NCBI GenBank assembly: GCA_048884785.1
Contig: JBHLQM010000072.1
Span: forward strand, 1-14,140
DNA length: 14,140 nucleotides
From: Candidatus Thorarchaeota archaeon
GTDB taxonomy: Archaea; Asgardarchaeota; Thorarchaeia; Thorarchaeales; Thorarchaeaceae
Reading direction: 5' to 3'
The position numbers and the translations under genes were made by a program. Shown here piece by piece: positions 1 to 9,316 of this stretch. A model generated the notes under the pieces. It was not told where the DNA came from. It searched no databases and saw nothing but the letters and a program-made list of their open reading frames with translations. Positions within the stretch are counted from its first letter, which is position 1; each line of letters starts with the position of its first letter.

Positions 1-73
1 AATCTTGGGGTCGCAAGTAGGGAGAAGTCGTAACAAGGTATCCGTAGCGGAAGCTGCGGATGGATCACCTCCT
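1..73 (+). rRNA. rrs: 16S rRNA, 3' end (partial)
   Basis: AAGTCGTAACAAGGTA universal motif, helix 45 (TCCGTAGC-GGAA-GCTGCGGA) and anti-SD tail GGATCACCTCCT ending at 73. Confidence 0.98.
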
Positions 74-80
74 AAGAATC

Positions 81-223
81 GCACAGCCGACAAGGCTGTG
101 CATCATTTGCTTGCCTGTCTTCGGACAGGGGGTGCAGGCTTACGACGGGACTGTGCAATCGTATCACATGGTTGCCATTGAGGGACTTACCCTCCTACCG
201 CTGTTGAGCACCCTTTTTCATTT
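81..223 (+). repeat. 16S 3' trailer element, copy T1 (native, complete)
   Basis: Hairpin GCACAGCC-GACAA-GGCTGTGC (81-101); CCTGTC-TTCG-GACAGG hairpin (114-129); GGGTGC (130-135) complementary to GCACCC (208-213); inner hairpin GAGGG-ACTTA-CCCTC (180-194); T-rich tail TTTTTCATTT (214-223, probable terminator). Repeated downstream. Confidence 0.9.
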
Positions 224-310
224 CTGCAGTATTCTGTCATGCCTCAGCGGAGCACAGGCCCAATGCTTCTCCTTAGGTAACTCCAAAGCCTCCAATCCTA
301 TGAGTCAATG

Positions 311-340
311 AGGTTATAAGCAATTATCAACATTATAAGT
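311..340 (+). promoter_or_regulatory. Putative TATA promoter/operator of the TA operon
   Basis: TTATAAG at 314-320 and again at 333-339. The first lies ~25 nt before ATG 342, which fits a leaderless archaeal transcript. Confidence 0.5.
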
Positions 341-341
341 T

Positions 342-539
342 ATGATAGACATGGGCGAAACCACAACGATTCCTCTCTCAAAGGAAACTCGTGATCTCTT
401 GAAGAAGTTCGGTCAGAAAGGCGAAACGTATGACGAGCTTATCCGACGCCTGTTGGAAAGCGCTGAGCAGATGGAATTCGCCAAACGCCAGAAACGAATC
501 CTGTCAGAAGAGGAGTTCGTTCCGCTTGAAGAAGTATAG
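342..539 (+). CDS. Antitoxin, ribbon-helix-helix type (archaeal RelB/VapB-like); start may be ATG 351
   Basis: TTTIPLSKETRDLLKKFGQKGETYDELIRRLL is a typical archaeal RHH antitoxin N-terminus; acidic tail EEEFVPLEEV; overlaps the toxin start. Confidence 0.85.
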   Translation: MIDMGETTTIPLSKETRDLLKKFGQKGETYDELIRRLLESAEQMEFAKRQKRILSEEEFVPLEEV

Positions 540-807
540 GGTCCTACTTTCGCAGACTGCTGTTTCGCAACTTCGAATGCTGGAAGTGAAGGAAGCTGAG
601 AGGATCAAAGAAGCACTTCAGAATCTTCAAGATGATCCCTTTCGTAGGCGTTCGGGAGCAGATATCAAGAAATTGATAACGACCAATGAGCCGCCACTTT
701 TTCGACTACGAATAGGAAACTACCGAGCTATCTACTTCGTACTTGAGGGAGAGGTTAAGGTCACAGAGATCATTCATAGAAGTAAAGGATACAAGTGGCT
801 GGAATAA
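526..807 (+). CDS. relE: Type II toxin, RelE/ParE family (93 aa from TTG 526)
   Basis: YRVLLSQTAVSQL...DIKKL...FRLRIGNYRAIY...IIHRSKGY RelE signature. SD GAGGAG at 510-515 supports TTG 526 rather than the track start at 430. Confidence 0.9.
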   Translation: MKKYRVLLSQTAVSQLRMLEVKEAERIKEALQNLQDDPFRRRSGADIKKLITTNEPPLFRLRIGNYRAIYFVLEGEVKVTEIIHRSKGYKWLE

Positions 808-955
808 GCCCTCTCTATTCAGGGTTGCGCACTTTCTAGCTTGTCCTGTCTTCGGACAGGGGGTGCAGGCTTACGACGGGACTGTGCAATCGTATCACAT
901 GGTTGCCATTGAGGGACTTGCCCTCCTACCGCTGTTGAGCACCCTTTTCATTTTT
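807..955 (+). repeat. 16S trailer element, copy T2
   Basis: 845-953 matches T1 114-223 except one substitution (920 G vs 189 A) and one T fewer in the T-run. The 5' part is divergent but keeps a hairpin (AGCCCT...AGGGTT, 807-826) followed by GCGCAC...GCTTG. Confidence 0.95.
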
Positions 956-1048
956 GAAGAATCTAATAGATATTAATGTATGAATTTGTTGCTTTCTTCT
1001 TCTCCATTATATACTCAAAATAATCTTGAAATAAATAGTGTGAATAAG

Positions 1049-2089
1049 ATGTCTGGCAGAAGGGAATATGATGGTAGTAGAGTTCATCTTTCCTTGGCCG
1101 GTAGTGGTGATCCGTGGAGTTCTCTGTCGAAGCTCCGCAAGAGGATACTGAGAGAGCTTCATGACACTCCTGACATCAACGAGATAGCATCGATACTGAA
1201 AATGAATCACGACGAACTCTTGTCGGAGATACGACCGATGATGGATGCAAGCCTTGTGCATAAATCATCTGAGGGATACCGTCCGTCCTTCCTGGTCACT
1301 GATGAAGATGAAACCATGACTGTATTCAACCATTCATGTGAGTTCAGCAAGAATCTGGCTGATATAGTCGAGAAGAATATGGATGACATTAGAACATCCT
1401 ACAACGAACTTGAGATTAGCAAGTCGTACGACTTTGATGATTTTGCATTCTTCCTTGTTGGTGGAAGAATACTTGATATCAAATTGCTTGAGAAGCTCAC
1501 TATGGGAAATCGAGTAATGCCCCCAGCTCCAGCACGACCAAGTCCGGAGAGGCCTGACTCACGCTACTACTTCTTCATGGTAGAAGGAGATGTTACCCAT
1601 CTGGGAGGGTTTGGTCAAGACGATTCGAACATGCCTTGGGCGAAATGGTATTTCATAACCTTTGGACAGAATGTCATTGATGGCAAGGCAAACCCAGAAC
1701 GAAGAAAATTGGAAGAGAGATACTCTGAAATCATCGAATCAGGAGTCTGTCAATGTCCAGAGGATATTGGAGAAGCCCTTGGTATCCCAATCGTGACGTT
1801 GCTGGACTCAGACTTATGGGAAGCTACGGCAGACATTCACGCTGAGTACCTCTGTCAGTGTTATGAGCAGCAAAATCCCTCGATTCAGGCATTGCACACT
1901 GGTCTGAAGTCCGGTCAGTATGCGCCTCACAGTTTTGGTGAGTTCTATTGCTGGTATGCTCACATTGCATATGCGAGTGCCATTGAGATACTCGAAGAGC
2001 GCGGAGTGATTTTCATACCGCCATCCCGGTTTCAAGCGGCTGTTTGGTGTAGAGAACGAGATAATGAAGGACTGCTTTCAGAATTCTAG
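1049..2089 (+). CDS. Hypothetical protein with probable N-terminal winged HTH (start ATG 1049 preferred over 980)
   Basis: Long ORF. LRKRILRELHDTPDINEIASILKMNHDELLSEIRPMMDASLV resembles an ArsR/MarR-like wHTH; the remainder is not recognised. Confidence 0.7.
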   Translation: MSGRREYDGSRVHLSLAGSGDPWSSLSKLRKRILRELHDTPDINEIASILKMNHDELLSEIRPMMDASLVHKSSEGYRPSFLVTDEDETMTVFNHSCEFSKNLADIVEKNMDDIRTSYNELEISKSYDFDDFAFFLVGGRILDIKLLEKLTMGNRVMPPAPARPSPERPDSRYYFFMVEGDVTHLGGFGQDDSNMPWAKWYFITFGQNVIDGKANPERRKLEERYSEIIESGVCQCPEDIGEALGIPIVTLLDSDLWEATADIHAEYLCQCYEQQNPSIQALHTGLKSGQYAPHSFGEFYCWYAHIAYASAIEILEERGVIFIPPSRFQAAVWCRERDNEGLLSEF

Positions 2090-2099
2090 ATGTTATACT

Positions 2100-2169
2100 T
2101 CACATACTTGCTGTACTGGATTTGGTGAGAAGGTTCTGCCTCACACCGTTGAGCACCCTTTTCATTTTT
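2100..2169 (+). repeat. 16S trailer element, copy T3 (3' part only)
   Basis: GTTGAGCACCCTTTTCATTTTT (2148-2169) is identical to T2 934-955. It is preceded by hairpin GTGAG...CTCAC (2125-2144) and TCACAT..TTGC as in T1. Confidence 0.85.
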
Positions 2170-2234
2170 CTATACCTTCTGATTTGACTTCCTCTATCAT
2201 CATTGTAATATTCAATTATGTGGAAGGTTTGATT

Positions 2235-2396
2235 ATGAAGGAAGTAAACGGCCTTTATGAATGCGAAGAATGTCATTTGTTTTATGAAGATGCAAAATGG
2301 GCAAAGAAATGTGAAGAATGGTGTATCGAGCACAAGTCCTGTAACCTCGAGATTACGAAACATGCCACTAAAGAATCTAAATTATCTCTCTCATAG
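2235..2396 (+). CDS. Small Cys/His-rich zinc-finger-like protein (53 aa)
   Basis: YECEECHLFY...AKKCEEWCIEHKSCNLEITKHA pattern with CxxC and CxxxC...H..C. The true start is probably ATG 2235 because the track's N-terminal extension overlaps T3. Confidence 0.75.
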   Translation: MKEVNGLYECEECHLFYEDAKWAKKCEEWCIEHKSCNLEITKHATKESKLSLS

Positions 2397-2448
2397 ATGT
2401 TCTAAGTTGCTTATCTCAAATGGACTTGGAATATAGACTGACCAGGTC

Positions 2449-2503
2449 AGGTGAATAGGGAACTTTCCCTTGCCTCGCCTTTTGAGCACCCTTTTGCATT
2501 TTT
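2449..2503 (+). repeat. 16S trailer element, copy T4 (3' part only, divergent)
   Basis: TTGAGCACCCTTTTGCATTTTT (2482-2503), preceded by nested stems AGGTGA/TCGCCT and AGGGA-ACTT-TCCCT (compare GAGGG-ACTTA-CCCTC in T1). Confidence 0.8.
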
Positions 2504-2667
2504 CTTCCAATACTTGAAACATTCACATGCACCAAGAACGATTATTAGAGAAGCTGGTTTATCGAAAACATCCTCAAAAGAGTTCTAGGCACGCCTTCAT
2601 GCACATCTAGTCCTATTTCGAACCGGGCTATATGATGGTCATGAATTAGAAGCGATGGTGGATTTAA

Positions 2668-4029
2668 ATGAAAGCAAAACAAGGACTGGTTTTTGCCATC
2701 TTGGCATCATTTTGTATATTGCTGTTCTCTCAAGCTACAGAATTGACTTTCGATAGGAGTTCGAATAGCAAACAATTCATGATGTCAGAAACAGAGGCAC
2801 ATTATGAAATCGTTATTACACACAACGATAACTTCACAGCCCAAGGATGGGACGGAAACGGTACAGCTGTTAATCCATTCCTAATTTCAGGACTGGAAAT
2901 CGCCAGCGATGCAATTTGTATCAACATTAGCAATACAGACTTGTACTTCATCATCGAGAACTGTCACTTGACCAGTGAAGGCTCAACTCCAAGTGGATAT
3001 GGCATCAGTTTCGAAGCTGTCAGTAATGCACAGGTGCGTGACATCTTCATAACAAGGAAAGTAATTGGAATAAATGTACTTGACGCCTCTGATACCCTTT
3101 TTTCAAACGTCACCATTTATGACTCCAGCTCGGGCGCCTATATTAGAGACTCAACAGACACCTCCATATCTAATAGCAGCATCATTGGCAGTACAGAGGG
3201 TTCAGCCATTATTTTGGATAGTAGCGATCACTGTAATATAATTGGCAATCAAATCCATGGTAATCAGGTTGGGTTCCTTTCTAATTCCTCTGAATGGATT
3301 AGCATCACGAATAATACAATTGTTGGAAATTCTGCCTATGGCATTCAGTCCACAAGCGGTAGCAAGAAACTCTCAGTTTATTGGAATAGAATTGGCTGGA
3401 ACGGCATAAATGCCATTGATAATGGAACCACGAAATTCTGGGATAATGGGAACTATGGAAACTGGTGGAGTGATAGTGATAATGATACTGCATACTTGAT
3501 ACCAGGTGCAGCGAATGCAAAGGACCGTCACTCTCAACTCTGGACTGATAACTTGGGACCTGATATTCACACAGTGTTATCTCAGAGTAAGTCTGATAGC
3601 ATATACTCTATCCATATCTCTGCGGAGGTTGCAGATAATATCGCAGTCGATCAAGTGATCGCATCCGTTTCATTGGATGATGAGGTTTCTTGGGAGAATA
3701 TTACAATGGATTGGTCATATACATCATGGACAACTAGCATCGATTCTCTATCGGCAGACAGCACAATTCACTATGTGGTTTATGCGAGTGATTATGCAGA
3801 AAACTGGGAAGTGACCTCAGCTGACGTATATTCCATAATCGTTGAAACTGATACTGGCTCCACATCGCAAACAACTACTACAGATACGAATACTACCAAT
3901 GGATTCACTGGCAATGGACCGGAAATTGGCCCGATAGTGATTGCTGCAGTTTTCGGAGCAATAGCAATAATCAGTGTAGTGGCGGTTCTTATGTATCAAT
4001 ATCCCTCCAAGTTCAGACGAAATAACTAG
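2668..4029 (+). CDS. Membrane-anchored surface protein with right-handed parallel beta-helix (NosD/pectin-lyase-like) repeats
   Basis: N-terminal signal peptide, GWDGNGTAVNPFLI motif, I-x-x-N-x-I beta-helix repeats, GNWWSD motif, Ig-like segment, Thr-rich linker, C-terminal TM and basic tail. Confidence 0.85.
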   Translation: MKAKQGLVFAILASFCILLFSQATELTFDRSSNSKQFMMSETEAHYEIVITHNDNFTAQGWDGNGTAVNPFLISGLEIASDAICINISNTDLYFIIENCHLTSEGSTPSGYGISFEAVSNAQVRDIFITRKVIGINVLDASDTLFSNVTIYDSSSGAYIRDSTDTSISNSSIIGSTEGSAIILDSSDHCNIIGNQIHGNQVGFLSNSSEWISITNNTIVGNSAYGIQSTSGSKKLSVYWNRIGWNGINAIDNGTTKFWDNGNYGNWWSDSDNDTAYLIPGAANAKDRHSQLWTDNLGPDIHTVLSQSKSDSIYSIHISAEVADNIAVDQVIASVSLDDEVSWENITMDWSYTSWTTSIDSLSADSTIHYVVYASDYAENWEVTSADVYSIIVETDTGSTSQTTTTDTNTTNGFTGNGPEIGPIVIAAVFGAIAIISVVAVLMYQYPSKFRRNN

Positions 4030-4056
4030 AATGCTTGCGAGAAGGAATCTGCGAAG

Positions 4057-4273
4057 ATGCATCTAAAACCGGTGCATACCCTTTCGCTTCGTTCTTTGAT
4101 TTTGCCTTAGGAGCAGATGGGCGCAGTTGATAACGAAGGTTTGTTCCTAAGTGACACTGCCATTTGATTCTCTTGTCCCTATGATCCGAATAGCGTTTCT
4201 CACACACGCATAAGGGGAATTCCGGATTCGCGGACTTACCCCCATTGCACTTTTGAGCGTTCTCTTTCATTTT
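4057..4273 (+). repeat. 16S trailer element, copy T5 (full length, highly divergent)
   Basis: Same order of elements as T1: hairpin ATGCATC/GGTGCAT (4057-4077), hairpin TTTGC/GCAGA (4101-4117), GGGCGCAG...ACGAAGG, GGACTTACCC (4232-4241), TTGAGCGTTC-TCTTTCATTTT (4253-4273). Confidence 0.7.
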
Positions 4274-4283
4274 GCAGAATCTC

Positions 4284-4730
4284 TCATAATTTGGCTGATC
4301 TAGGTTTTCTCTTGACTTCAAGAAGCCTCTTGATATCGGTAATGGTTGCTGATGAAGGAATCCTTATCCAAAGCCATTTGCCATCCTGCAATTGGTCTGT
4401 GGTTGCGAATATCTCTTTAAGACCAGAGCCAAGTTCGTCTAGTATGTTCTCCACTTTTTCTACCTCTTTCTTGCCTAGCACAATTAGGACAGTAAAACAT
4501 CCGGATTCTGGAAACAGTGTACAGAATGTCTTTCCACCTTTTCGATATCGTACTGTCCATCCATATTTCTTCCCGTAGAATATAATTTCAAAATCAAAGT
4601 CATAGTTTGAGCCAAGAAATGACGTCAGTTCGACCCAATCTCTTGTTGCCTGCTTCCCAATGAAGTGCTGTATATCCTCCTCAGTTGGTTTTCTCTCCTT
4701 ATCACACATTCTTTCAGGTGTGCTAGTCAA
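4284..4730 (-). CDS. DUF3788 family protein
   Basis: FYGKKYGWTVRYRKGGKTFCTLFPE...FTVLIVLG...DGKWLWI...DIKRLLEVKRKP; TTG start with upstream AGGAG. Confidence 0.85.
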   Translation of the reverse strand: MTSTPERMCDKERKPTEEDIQHFIGKQATRDWVELTSFLGSNYDFDFEIIFYGKKYGWTVRYRKGGKTFCTLFPESGCFTVLIVLGKKEVEKVENILDELGSGLKEIFATTDQLQDGKWLWIRIPSSATITDIKRLLEVKRKPRSAKL

Positions 4731-4831
4731 TTTCAGATTACTCTCCTGTTCTTTGGAATACCGCTTTCGTTAGCCACGATTTCCATGGAATATTGCCTTT
4801 CGCCAAAGAAAAAGCTTTCATCCTAAAGGAA

Positions 4832-4906
4832 ATGCAAATCTTCAGAGTCGTGCATCATTTGCTTGTCCTGTCTTCGAACAGGGGGTGCAGGCTTACGACG
4901 GGACTG
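4832..4906 (+). repeat. 16S trailer element, copy T6 (5' part only)
   Basis: 4850-4906 matches T1 98-153 with one inserted T (shared with T2) and one G>A substitution. It is preceded by an ATGCA...TGCAT hairpin; the GAGCACCC/T-rich 3' end is absent. Confidence 0.9.
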
Positions 4907-4975
4907 AACGTTAACTCACTGCACTGTCATGTAGTATTCCTAAATGACTTCGGAATAGCTTCTAATCGGCCTACA

Positions 4976-5128
4976 AATCTAAAATGGTAAACAAACCAAT
5001 TGACCTTTATATAGGTTAATGTTTTAATAAACAAATACCATATATAATAGGTTATAAGCAATTTGAATAGACAGACTCGCATATAAAACTCATGAAGATT
5101 GGTTTCTAGTACCTAAGGTGATGAAGAG
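4976..5128 (+). promoter_or_regulatory. Promoter/regulatory module, copy 1 (paralogous to 7614-7839)
   Basis: AATCTAAAATGGTAAACA...AATTGA...TATAGGT block, AATAGGTTATAAGCAATTTGAATA block, CGCATATAAAA TATA box and SD AAGGTGATGAA, all with counterparts at 7614-7839. Confidence 0.7.
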
Positions 5129-5293
5129 ATGCTAGTATTGGAACTTGAATTACTGGAGGAGCTGGTATATTCTCTCTTTGTAATGTTTTTTGCAGCTGCA
5201 GTATCTCTGTTTCTGAGCAAACTCACGAACTATGCTTCCAGAAAGCCTACAGTTCCAAAAATGGCAGTATTGGAATCATACTTATCCATATGA
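5129..5293 (+). CDS. Small single-TM protein (54 aa) upstream of antiporter 1; not in the ORF track
   Basis: MLVLELELLEELVYSLFVMFFAAAVSLFLSKLTNYASRKPTVPKMAVLESYLSI; SD AGGTGA; 24 of the first 37 residues are identical to the ORF at 7840. Confidence 0.8.
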   Translation: MLVLELELLEELVYSLFVMFFAAAVSLFLSKLTNYASRKPTVPKMAVLESYLSI

Positions 5294-5302
5294 GGAATAT
5301 CC

Positions 5303-6637
5303 ATGGCATCATCTGACTTCATACTACCATTTCTCCTTCTTGCATTGATTCTTACAATAATCAAGGTATCCCAAGTTATATTCAAGAAACTCGATTTGCC
5401 TGAAGTCCTGGGGGAACTTCTGGTTGGAATAATACTAGGACCTACAATGTTAGGAATCCTATATCTGAATGCAGTACCGACATCATCTTTGAGCTTGTTT
5501 TTTGAGATTGATCAAAATCAGCTTGATATTGCTTCACTCATTATCAATTTCATCAGCAATCTTGCAGTACTCTTGTTGCTGTTCAAGGTGGGAATGGAGC
5601 TTGATTTTCATGATATGATTAAGGTGCGCACTCCTGCGTTTGTGACTGCAGGAGCTGGAATTTTGTTGACAATTGCTGGAGGTATAGTATTCCTTGTAGC
5701 ATTAGTCGGAATAACCACGTTGGATTTGCAGCCTCACGGTGTTGATATATGGTACTCAGCAATATTCCTTGGTGTTGCATTTACTGCAACCAGTATTGGC
5801 ATCAGCACTCGCCTGTTTTGCGACTATAAGAAACTTCAGACGAAAGTCGCCCAAACGGTCGTGGCCTCTGCGATATTTGACGATATTATTGCAGTTGCAT
5901 TATTCTCATTCGTTATCGCATATTTCACCAGTGCAGAATCATTGAATCCTTTCGGACTTCCCATAATTCTAGTTAATATCACCCTATTCTTTGTTGTAAG
6001 TTACATTCTATATAGGTATATTCTACCCTATTTCTTCCAAAAGACAAAGAAATACGACGACAAAACATTGCCTGTTTTTGTAAGTCTGTCTCTAATGCTC
6101 TATTTGGCATTCTTTGCTCAAATGCTGGGACTAGCTCCAATAATTGGAGCTTTTGTAGCAGGGGTCATTATTGGGAATGAGGATGAGTATCTTGATATTC
6201 ATGATGATTTTGAGCCCATTTCTTCTTGGATTATTCCCTTCTTTTTCATAAGTATTGGTTTGACCATCAACCTTGTTCCATCTTTGAATGTCATCTCGAT
6301 TCTTATCGCGCTACTATTGGTTGCTGTAGCAATTGTACCAAAATATGCAGGTGGAATATTTGGATCTTATTTCGGTGATTACGATAAGGGAGAAGCTAGA
6401 ACCATTGGTCTTAGCATGGCTGTTAGAGGCGAGGTTACCCTCTTCTTTGCCTATACAGGCTTTCACCTTGGATATTTCACAGAAACACTTTATGGAATCG
6501 TAATCCTGTCAGTCATTCTAGTTTCCTTTATTCTCATTCCTCTGCTCAAGCACGCCTGTATGAATTGGCTACCAGAGAACGGTGTGAAATGTGAAACACC
6601 CATCATCATCTCACCTGAAACTTCCGACATTTCCTAG
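5303..6637 (+). CDS. Cation:proton antiporter, CPA2 family (NapA/Kef-like membrane domain)
   Basis: LPEVLGELLVGIILGP, LLFKVGMELD, ATSIGI, AIFDDII, IIGAFVAG, PFFFISIG, VRGEV motifs; about 13 TM segments. Confidence 0.93.
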   Translation: MASSDFILPFLLLALILTIIKVSQVIFKKLDLPEVLGELLVGIILGPTMLGILYLNAVPTSSLSLFFEIDQNQLDIASLIINFISNLAVLLLLFKVGMELDFHDMIKVRTPAFVTAGAGILLTIAGGIVFLVALVGITTLDLQPHGVDIWYSAIFLGVAFTATSIGISTRLFCDYKKLQTKVAQTVVASAIFDDIIAVALFSFVIAYFTSAESLNPFGLPIILVNITLFFVVSYILYRYILPYFFQKTKKYDDKTLPVFVSLSLMLYLAFFAQMLGLAPIIGAFVAGVIIGNEDEYLDIHDDFEPISSWIIPFFFISIGLTINLVPSLNVISILIALLLVAVAIVPKYAGGIFGSYFGDYDKGEARTIGLSMAVRGEVTLFFAYTGFHLGYFTETLYGIVILSVILVSFILIPLLKHACMNWLPENGVKCETPIIISPETSDIS

Positions 6638-6811
6638 ACCATTTCAGCTGTTCATTCAGTCAATAGATTGAATTGATACTAGAAGCACTCACATCCGCCA
6701 AGAATGATTATTAGTGAAGTTTGCTTATCCCAAACACACTCAAAAGTCTTCTAAGCGCGCCTCCATGCAGAACTAGTCCCAACTGGCACTTGGTTATCCA
6801 ATTATGGAGAT

Positions 6812-7613: not shown

Positions 7614-7839
7614 AATCTAAAATGGTCAACAGATTAATTGATTTTAATATAGGTATGTTTTTATTTAAATAAAATTAGTATAATATAGGAATAATATTAT
7701 ACAAATCAATTGTGTTTTATATCTATAAGTGTTTTAATATACCTATATCGCATAGAATAGATTATATGCGATATGAATAACGAGGCCGCATATAAAATTC
7801 CTGCATCCTGGTCTCTGATGTGTGAAAGGTGATGAACAC
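7614..7839 (+). promoter_or_regulatory. Promoter/regulatory module, copy 2, with a perfect 10-N10-10 inverted repeat
   Basis: AATCTAAAATGGTCAACA block (7614-7631); ATATCGCATA (7745-7754)/TATGCGATAT (7765-7774); CGCATATAAAA (7787-7797); SD AAGGTGATGAA. Confidence 0.7.
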
Positions 7840-8037
7840 ATGCTGATATTGGAGCTAGAAATAATAGAAGAAATGATAGTTTCTCTTTTTCTCATGTTTT
7901 TTGCAGTTGCAGTATCACTGATTCTAACCAAGCTTAAAAGCTACCTTTCTGAAAGGACCACAATTTCATCAAGAGATGTTATTAGACCAACATTGACTAG
8001 GAGCTACTATTTGCCAACGCTGCTGAGTAGCTGCTAA
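7840..8037 (+). CDS. Small single-TM protein (65 aa) upstream of antiporter 2; paralogue of 5129-5293
   Basis: MLILELEIIEEMIVSLFLMFFAVAVSLILTKLKSYLS...; the SD position and the paralogue indicate ATG 7840 rather than GTG 7822. Confidence 0.8.
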   Translation: MLILELEIIEEMIVSLFLMFFAVAVSLILTKLKSYLSERTTISSRDVIRPTLTRSYYLPTLLSSC

Positions 8038-8056
8038 CAGAAAAGGAGGGCTGTAT

Positions 8057-9316
8057 TTGGACAATATCCCCATTATTATCGGAATTGGACTAGTTATGGC
8101 CTTCCTGGCTTCTAAAATCTTCAAAAGAGTAGGCATTCCTCAAGTTGTTGGATTCATGGTAGCTGGAATACTGCTTCGAGTCTTTGGTATTGTGACCTAT
8201 GAAAATGTGAATACTCTAAGTGTAATATTCTCTCTGGCACTCGGTCTGATTGGGTATAACATAGGTCTTGAACTAAAAATGAGAATCCTTCGAGGGAGAA
8301 TACGAAGAATACTATTGATTGTGGTTCTTGAGGCAACCGTTGCCTTTTGGATTGTCACACTTCTAGTTCTCGCAATAACTCAACAAATGTACGTTGCCTT
8401 GATTCTTGGCTCAATTGCTAGTGCAACAGCTCCAGCAGCAACTGCTGATGTTGTTTGGGATCACGAATGTAAGGGGCCCGTGACGGAATCGTTGATGTTC
8501 ATTTTGGCGATGGATGATATCATTGCAGTCGTATTAACTAACGCTGCCGTGGCCTACGCACTTTTTGTACTATCACCTACAACCAACATGTTTTTGGCTG
8601 CATTGCTGAGTCCTATCATTCTAACCATTGGCTCAGTTGTAATTGGAGTGGTTTTTGGTATTGTATTTACGATGTTCACAATGAGAGAAGAGAGCAAGGC
8701 TGTAATTGTGGAGCTTGAGGTTGCGCTCATTATTCTCTTGGTTGGTGTCGTCGGTTTCTTTGGATTCAATGATATTCTTGCCGCCATCGCCTTCGGAGTG
8801 ATTGTAGGCAATAGCGTTCCGGAGAACAAACAACAGGGTCCCCATCTATTGGAAGTCATCATGGCCCCCATCGTAATGCTGTTTTTCGTATTGGCCGGAG
8901 CAAAAACAGATCTGTCATTATTTATGGGCGAACTAGGCGGGATTGTTGTACTTCTAACGATATTATATATCGGAGGAAGGACATTCGGAAAGATTCTTGG
9001 GGCGCGTGCGGGGGCATCTGTTACCGCATCCGAACCTACCGTTAGAAAATATCTTGGTATCTGTCTGCTTAGTCAGGCTGGCGTTGCCTTGGGTCTCAGC
9101 GTGCTGATTGAACACGAGTTTGCAATACTTGGCGGAGAAGCTGCTGTTTTTGGAACAATCATCCTGAGCGTAGTAGCTCTTTCAACAATTTTCCTTGAAA
9201 TTGTTGGCCCAATTGCCGCGAAGTGGGCTTTGACGCAAGCCGGTGAGGTTGGCAATGGCAATGGGCGGTGTGATGAATCTGCGATAAGCCAACCAGAAAC
9301 CATCGAGAGTTCTTAG
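8057..9316 (+). CDS. Cation:proton antiporter, CPA2 family
   Basis: GIPQVVGFMVAG, IGLEL, ASATAPAAT, LAMDDIIAV, LFFVLAGA, RTFGKILG, LLSQAGVALGL motifs; TTG start with AGGAGG SD. Confidence 0.93.
   Translation: MDNIPIIIGIGLVMAFLASKIFKRVGIPQVVGFMVAGILLRVFGIVTYENVNTLSVIFSLALGLIGYNIGLELKMRILRGRIRRILLIVVLEATVAFWIVTLLVLAITQQMYVALILGSIASATAPAATADVVWDHECKGPVTESLMFILAMDDIIAVVLTNAAVAYALFVLSPTTNMFLAALLSPIILTIGSVVIGVVFGIVFTMFTMREESKAVIVELEVALIILLVGVVGFFGFNDILAAIAFGVIVGNSVPENKQQGPHLLEVIMAPIVMLFFVLAGAKTDLSLFMGELGGIVVLLTILYIGGRTFGKILGARAGASVTASEPTVRKYLGICLLSQAGVALGLSVLIEHEFAILGGEAAVFGTIILSVVALSTIFLEIVGPIAAKWALTQAGEVGNGNGRCDESAISQPETIESS

Follow-up and report, generated by a model that had tools for sequence, protein, structure and literature searches.

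The locus

The stretch of DNA analysed here (the window) is contig C72 in full, 14,140 nucleotides (nt) from a Candidatus Thorarchaeota archaeon. It begins with the 3′ end of a 16S rRNA gene, behind which same-strand segments derived from the 16S trailer alternate with accessory genes. We read this array as the trace of successive exchanges of the 16S 3′ end, and give that reading a probability of about 0.55. Positions relative to the 16S end are counted from 0 at window position 74, and the features are these.

1 to 73, plus strand: 3′ end of the 16S rRNA gene (Rfam small-subunit rRNA match), intron-free allele
74 to 225, plus strand: T1, the native trailer, made up of hairpins and the 3′ arm of the pre-16S processing stem, with the conserved core and a T-rich tract at its end
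342 to 807, plus strand: cargo 1, antitoxin DUF7557 (342-539) and RelE/ParE toxin (526-807), by Pfam
819 to 957, plus strand: T2, displaced own-genus trailer, 5′-truncated at about +17, its hairpin-1 arm unlike that of T1
980 to 2089, plus strand: cargo 2, protein of 346-369 amino acids (aa) and no known family, without significant Pfam match
2137 to 2170, plus strand: T3, only the trailer 3′ core, hidden Markov model (HMM) E 8.5e-5, no 5′ match
2235 to 2396, plus strand: cargo 3, 53-aa Cys/His-rich (Zn-finger) protein
2413 to 2503, plus strand: T4, displaced trailer, foreign in type (genus g6), from about +10
2668 to 4029, plus strand: cargo 4, beta-helix/NosD-domain protein with hydrophobic ends
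4219 to 4273, plus strand: T5, degenerate 3′ part of a trailer, ranked fifth in the genome by the HMM (E 0.06)
4284 to 4730, minus strand: cargo 5, DUF3788 protein
4843 to 4906, plus strand: T6, distal own-genus copy, truncated at both ends and without the 3′ core

The body of the 16S gene is at the end of contig C29, the sole 16S match in the source genome assembly (G000; 3.6 Mb, completeness 91%). That copy stops in the first two bases of a mini-intron at −10 (intron D) and has one base unlike the window. With C29 ending in intron D and the window intron-free, the bin contains two 16S-end alleles, one of each type; in the probable source run one contig carries the −10 intron too. The window's own 16S end has intact targets for two guide-like segments considered below, guides C and D, with their CGGAT motifs. 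No 23S gene match was found in the source genome, and no tRNA in the window.

Could the stretch be an assembly chimera of several strains' 16S flanks, an alternative that the first-pass annotation of this DNA had itself named? Two alleles in one bin would suit it, as would the fact that no record spans the whole stretch; in particular none bridges both T1 and T2. Against it, one unitig of 5,136 nt in the probable source run covers 890-6025 at an even depth of 10.5, a second sample from the same study yields most of the array, in pieces, and an array of the same kind stands in the single-contig genome G030. Moreover, in the probable source run the toxin-antitoxin (TA) unit has a depth of 12.1 and the segment common to T1 and T2 one of 18.4, the approximate doubling expected of two copies. 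A chimera is accordingly extremely improbable. Pairing between leader and trailer, tried as proof that C29 continues into C72, was dropped because foreign trailers pair about equally well: T1 ranks 2 of 36 in one comparison and 8 of 16 in another.

The trailer copies

T1 pairs with the 16S leader at z −4.6 against shuffles, which makes it the 3′ arm of the pre-rRNA processing stem, and its own fold has z −3.6. Inspected by eye, the predicted stem has no evident bulge-helix-bulge motif of the canonical kind. An HMM of the trailer 3′ part, trained without any source-genome sequence and searched against the 3.6-Mb genome, has as its top five matches T2 (E 3e-11), T1 (5e-10), T4 (7e-9), T3 (9e-5) and T5 (0.06); the sixth is the 16S leader, on the opposite strand. 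The repeat is therefore tied to the 16S and is not a dispersed one, the alternative that had been put up for testing. T6 is 96.5% identical to T1 over 57 nt, T2 97.4% over 116 nt and T5 76% over 41 nt. The six same-strand trailer-derived segments first described are indeed present. Their limits needed revision: T2 and T6 were trimmed to start at about 819 and 4843, in both cases in the loop of the first trailer hairpin at about +17, and T3 and T5 are borne out as 3′ core only, 22-41 nt being all that remains. That some copies are ‘conserved mainly in structure’ did not survive, as the T3 and T5 folds are not significant (z about −1.4) and native trailers match their proposed 5′ parts no better than they match shuffles. 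The suggested comparison of T3, T4 and T5 with the native trailers of other genomes succeeded for T4, whose best match is the native trailer of genus g6 (score 61, as against 15 for its own trailer and a shuffle maximum of 25), and failed for the 5′ parts of T3 and T5. An Rfam search returned nothing for the trailer sequence.

A row of small cassettes between same-strand repeats recalls an integron cassette array, specifically a cluster of attC sites lacking integron-integrases (CALIN) that would have come to stand behind 16S by chance. The cassettes are small, rich in TA pairs and often end near a stop codon, a GTTRRRY match is present in the core of 94 of 138 copies, and integrons have been reported from Asgard archaea (PMC9668308). 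The GTTRRRY match, however, belongs to the leader-pairing strand, its partner box RYYYAAC is in no window copy, and both boxes occur together in 13 of 138 copies, which equals the left-box count in shuffled flanks. The integrase profile PF00589 is unmatched in the 91%-complete source genome and in 17 other array-family genomes, single-contig G030 included. With no left attC box above chance and no integrase found, the array is not an integron, and the CALIN explanation has next to no likelihood.

The cargo

Each of the five window intervals contains one gene or operon, as originally claimed, a rule that stops at the window since the intervals of relatives contain anything from none to several genes. 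The first cargo identifications stand for the TA pair, the Cys/His protein, the beta-helix protein and DUF3788, by Pfam or sequence; the winged helix-turn-helix assignment of cargo 2 is unconfirmed, the 369-aa protein having no significant Pfam match, and a plasmid search gave no match for it. Where a group is given for the named relatives of a window gene, it is Candidatus Thorarchaeota. Several other genera have homologues of cargo 1 in their arrays, where junction and trailer type are different each time, and the Zn-finger unit with a g6-type downstream trailer is also in G032 and G064. Cargo 4 has many distant paralogues at other sites in the source genome. Homologues of cargo 2 (in 6 of 85 relatives) are mostly without flanking trailer copies and few of those of cargo 5 (in 25 of 85) are flanked by them; since these relatives of the cargo live mostly outside arrays, it would be ordinary accessory genes that are being recruited.

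Arrays across the family

Of 86 family genomes the trailer model finds matches in 76, as many as 19 in one genome, and at 40 loci of relatives there are about 180 same-strand matches and 2 on the opposite strand (native trailers counted throughout). The copies are grouped immediately downstream of 16S on one strand; G030, a single contig, has its six matches within the 14 kb that follow the gene. From genus to genus cargo reappears in differing orders, among it several TA pairs, YdeI, Acr3/ArsR-like and other small genes. The proposal that genes are captured again and again at the 16S 3′ end gains family-wide support. Literature searches, with subscription papers outside their coverage, found no published description of such arrays.

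Some further observations belong here. One lone trailer-like match (G059:C1:1871783-1871848) lies on the other strand, at a great distance from the main cluster and with a TnpB copy some 7 kb away. A YdeI/DUF1801 cassette (loci L045, L046, L047, L050, L064, L067 and L068) meets the 16S end at one and the same junction, −43, in seven genomes from three genera, and contigs in runs X1 and X4 are also joined to the 16S end at −43. A joint of 223 to 4854 in run X4 was not counted as an excision, having only 24 letters on one side and lying within repeats. In other Asgard families (L055, L062 and L063; G089, G097 and G110) there are short duplicates of the 16S 3′ end downstream of 16S.

Displaced tails and mini-introns

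Leaders mostly follow genus, and in a best-match comparison several native trailers best match another genus. Foreign trailers pair with a given leader about as well as its own trailer does, so that a cell with an exchanged trailer should be viable. The final 27-43 nt of 16S are part of some displaced copies, and in four genomes (G048, G030, G064 and G031) these displaced 16S ends hold a 30-nt intron at a place where the native end is intron-free; the 16S end itself was swapped. Together with the g6-type T4, these intron-bearing displaced ends bear out the model first offered, in which a donor's trailer arrives with the incoming DNA and the resident trailer is displaced outward and shortened. 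Judged from sequence comparison, the repeats are displaced 16S tails, and units and tails move between genera.

In relatives four hairpin mini-introns, each of 29-33 nt, interrupt the 16S gene at about −190, −144, −42 and −10 (L102-L119, L036, L052 and L053); all four are present in G035 and in G008. In G025 there is an 89-nt insertion at about −23. The uniform, spacer-like length of the introns, beside a Cas1-like protein to be introduced below, raises the question of the inserting agent.

The two ends of the displaced copies behave differently. Among 36 well-matched copies, 30 have their 3′ end 8-22 nt past the conserved core, where the stem finishes, and the starts are scattered from −67 (a figure that counts the intron) to +119. 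The 27 displaced copies that contain 16S sequence all start at −43 or downstream of it. Tails of the intron-free type show an abrupt front at +7: 25 of them begin in +7 to +19 and 5 in −42 to +6 (binomial p 5e-13, overstated because kin and events are not independent), and the starts at +7 to +12 come from seven genomes. Intron D is present in 20 of 29 long remnants and in 15 of 43 native ends (Fisher p 0.008, kin again not being independent).

A fixed 3′ end with variable 5′ truncation is also what retrocopies look like, and the copies might be envisaged as reverse-transcribed 3′ ends of pre-16S RNA. Their restriction to the locus and the unspliced intron kept by the long ones have already largely refuted this idea, and no RVT_1 match was found in five array-bearing genomes; it is very improbable.

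A Cas1-like/TnpB element in relatives

Starting some 200-250 nt behind 16S, seven relatives (G001, G009, G035, G036, G039, G043 and G069) have a giant gene that encodes 1,600-1,700 aa, and fragments occupy the first slot in further relatives. The giant protein was without clear match in Pfam, NCBIfam, a PDB sequence search, ESM Atlas and Foldseek, and its single-sequence fold was unusable (predicted local distance difference test score, pLDDT, 34). Only an alignment-based model, with VIA-align, revealed the likeness to Cas1: the first 160 residues fold as a Cas1 catalytic domain whose six best matches are all Cas1 (Z 8.4-10.0; for the best, Z 10.0, root mean square deviation 3.2 over 130 residues). 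E13, H101, D109 and D112 are invariant, and a Cas4-like nuclease domain follows (Z 8.0).

Divergent to the giant gene is a gene for TnpB, by family matches. Downstream of this 16S-linked TnpB subgroup there are short repeats and segments of 14-27 nt that match 16S at about −182, −153, −34 and −11, all within the last 200 nt of the gene; the family's other TnpB copies have no 16S-matching segments behind them. All four 16S targets are preceded by CGGAT or AGAAT, and each is split in some alleles by an intron of 29-33 nt. Two of the guide-like segments are sense and two antisense to 16S, and the right junction of the element accounts for the last one alone. In G058 that last segment runs into a full displaced trailer and is therefore the element's right junction, the right end meeting 16S exactly after the CGGAT motif. 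ISDra2 TnpB cuts 15-21 bp from its transposon-associated motif (TAM) (PMC8612924), and this distance, applied to the −11 target, predicts a cut at +2 to +8, in agreement with the +7 front. The Asp residues of RuvC-I and RuvC-III are kept and the RuvC-II Glu is replaced by Gly, with an alternative Glu invariant; for rearranged RuvC sites of this sort activity is a prediction only (PMC10691335).

Another copy of this TnpB family (G037:C16, L092) has a tRNA-like sequence downstream, and further copies have different shared downstream segments; the family probably targets several conserved genes, to go by what stands behind its members.

Neither this element nor the mini-introns figured in the first-pass annotation. 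The one is the probable trigger of the array and, with the introns, probably explains where displaced copies start.

A site-specific enzyme acting at the trailer core, whether a recombinase that escaped recognition or the Cas1-like protein working in trans, would be a different explanation, and a recombinase acting in trans had been mooted from the outset. It would suit the sharp 3′ boundary and the strong conservation of the core, and the exact joint after CGGAT in G058 suggests site-specific insertion of the element itself. The core, however, is the end of the processing stem, so that its conservation needs no recombinase; the 5′ ends are spread over about 190 nt, and cargo junctions have no common end motif and differ between homologous cassettes. 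Profile searches of the source genome (91% complete) for PF00589, PF00239, PF00078, PF07282 and the Cas1-like alignment gave no match, and single-contig G030 has none for the tyrosine or serine recombinase profiles PF00589 and PF00239, which leaves the trans-acting tyrosine or serine recombinase without a candidate in either genome. Insertion of cassettes by such an enzyme is quite unlikely.

How replacement might proceed

The scheme we favour, at somewhat better than even odds, is an RNA-guided cut followed by repair from a donor allele together with its tail and cargo, the old tail being displaced outward as in the yeast WHO elements discussed below. We infer its steps, which are cutting by TnpB, copying of the donor, rejoining of the resected end and later recombination between tails, from the anatomy described above. 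To begin with, a selfish Cas1-like/TnpB element, present at one time in the cell or lineage, would cut the 16S end at guide-defined sites, and alleles with a 30-nt intron inside the target would be spared. The left broken end would then be repaired from another allele, anchored in conserved 16S, and the repair would copy the donor's 16S end, its trailer and the gene or genes behind. The new DNA would join the resected right end, leaving the old tail as the 5′-truncated direct repeat that is seen behind the cargo. Finally, ordinary recombination between tail copies, for which there is partial evidence, would excise, reinsert and shuffle units, between genera too. Cargo units would need no dedicated integrase, and TA pairs, from what is known of integron arrays, probably aid the retention of units.

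Several considerations weigh against this scheme. The source genome, single-contig G030, G048 and G079 have arrays and no match to this TnpB or Cas1-like protein, so that the nuclease must be transient or have been lost. The RuvC site is of the rearranged type, with Gly at the RuvC-II Glu, and the cut distance is taken from a different TnpB, that of ISDra2. Self-protection is incomplete: the A site is intact in G043 and G001, the B site in G001 and the C site in G009. The +7 front coincides with the first trailer hairpin as well, guide C predicts a cut 5-11 nt further upstream than the −43 limit, and pop-out loss of longer remnants could mimic the gap in starts. The p-values are overstated, genomes and events not being independent.

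Is a nuclease needed at all? Linear DNA could be taken up by homology, with 16S or the trailer as anchor and an illegitimate far join, or popped-out circles could be reinserted by RadA-type recombination, the TnpB element then merely sharing the hotspot. Arrays in genomes without a detected element agree with this, as does the Zn-finger unit with its g6-type trailer, which in G032 and G064 comes right after the host's own core, as a circle would place it. So too does the YdeI-family junction, constant in seven genomes in which the tails behind the unit differ. Such a route, however, does not predict the −43 limit, the +7 front or the excess of intron D in long remnants, and cross-genus sharing is limited to some 20-25 nt of core. 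As the whole explanation it is unlikely, though it deserves to be kept in mind; alongside the guided replacement of 16S ends it probably operates in any case.

Neighbouring sequences

Beyond T6 the window has two alike modules (4983-6637 and 7693-9316), each with a promoter-like region, an open reading frame of about 55-70 aa and a Na+/H+ antiporter-like gene (repeats D1, D3 and D18). In G005 related modules and neighbouring ThiI-like and LarE-like genes are separated by trailer copies; this arrangement suggests that neighbouring genes are being taken into the array. Two copies of a 122-nt direct repeat (76%) occur, one at 2510-2631, right behind T4, the other at 6676-6797, before a small helix-turn-helix gene and with no trailer core ahead of it. 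A selenocysteine tRNA (tRNA-SeC) is predicted elsewhere in the source genome (C35:12547-12637). A sigma-70 and terminator scan was uninformative, the host being an archaeon.

Comparison with known systems

Integrative elements accrete in tandem at the 3′ ends of tRNA and tmRNA genes, where duplicated 3′ fragments of the RNA gene separate successive insertions. Duplicated stable-RNA 3′ fragments between insertions are shared with such islands, of which that at Dehalococcoides ssrA is an example (PMC3146451). Neither the units here nor their surroundings hold an integrase (PF00589 is unmatched on those array contigs that were checked). A fixed 5′ crossover is missing too, and since the 5′ ends vary this is no standard att-site island. 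With integron and CALIN arrays (Ghaly et al. 2022, PMC9668308) it shares the row of small, TA-rich, shuffled cassettes between same-strand repeats; it differs in that the repeats are rRNA tails, variably 5′-truncated and without attC boxes, and in that no IntI was found.

The nearest parallel is from yeasts. At FBA1 in Torulaspora and Lachancea, the nuclease of WHO elements cuts the sensitive allele of an essential gene and repair swaps its 3′ end; successive rounds displace old 3′ ends outward into a tandem cluster of fragments with the newest unit nearest the gene (Coughlan et al. 2020, PMC7282813). In like manner T2, T4 and T6 are same-strand 16S 3′ fragments downstream of, and unlike, the current allele, and relatives carry intron-bearing remnants behind intron-free genes. 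The differences are as instructive. The target is an rRNA gene with its processing stem, in an archaeon; no nuclease gene was found in the window array or the source genome, and several relatives have one in their first slot; what the units mostly carry is unrelated accessory genes, not a nuclease. The candidate nuclease would be RNA-guided, with resistance conferred by mini-introns, if the coincidence of guide, target and intron is taken at face value.

Asgard aCas1-TnpB loci, Cas1H-Asgard-1 and -2, have been described (Altae-Tran et al. 2023, PMC10691335). The relatives' first-slot element has in common with them the Cas1-like protein, TnpB and a downstream TTCACTCA-type motif, and, as in that description, a conserved motif and a hypervariable guide-like region are downstream of tnpB. 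That paper names no target, 16S link, introns or cargo array for aCas1-TnpB, and the window itself is not an aCas1-TnpB locus. In ISDra2 (Karvelis et al. 2021, PMC8612924) the guide likewise comes from the flank of the right end, the TAM is 5′ of the target and the break is proposed to prompt recombinational copying. Unlike ISDra2, the relatives' element has several guides, two of them antisense, there is no Y1 transposase in the locus, and the target gene would be repaired by replacement and not merely interrupted. Among Asgard archaea HeimM2 of Heimdallarchaeum (Wu et al. 2022, PMC8813620) is a nuclease-bearing mobile element that sits immediately downstream of its host's sole 16S gene. It is a single 8-kb element with a homing-endonuclease homologue, and the available part of that report describes no array of trailer copies.

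Implications

At its fullest the proposal is that a selfish RNA-guided cutter, as a side effect of its activity, made the sole 16S gene a family-wide capture platform, with break repair as the importer of new rRNA tails and accessory genes, introns as immunity alleles and discarded tails as cross-genus cassette recombination sites, and no cassette integrase; we advance it tentatively, at a little under even odds. The boundary analysis would tie the remnants to a predicted cut site and to intron status, and the model is directly testable as guide, TAM-like motif and cut position are all specified.

There are practical consequences for those who rely on 16S. Its 3′ end and trailer move between genera, which calls for caution, as does the presence of introns in the last 45 nt of the gene, where common 16S reverse primers bind.

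If true, the reading would link three things, the targets of Asgard aCas1-TnpB, the mini-introns at few fixed sites in Thorarchaeota 16S and the variability of assemblies and accessory genes behind 16S. It would also mean an integrase-free route to integron-like arrays, built on a gene whose integrity no cell can do without, among the archaea nearest to eukaryotes.

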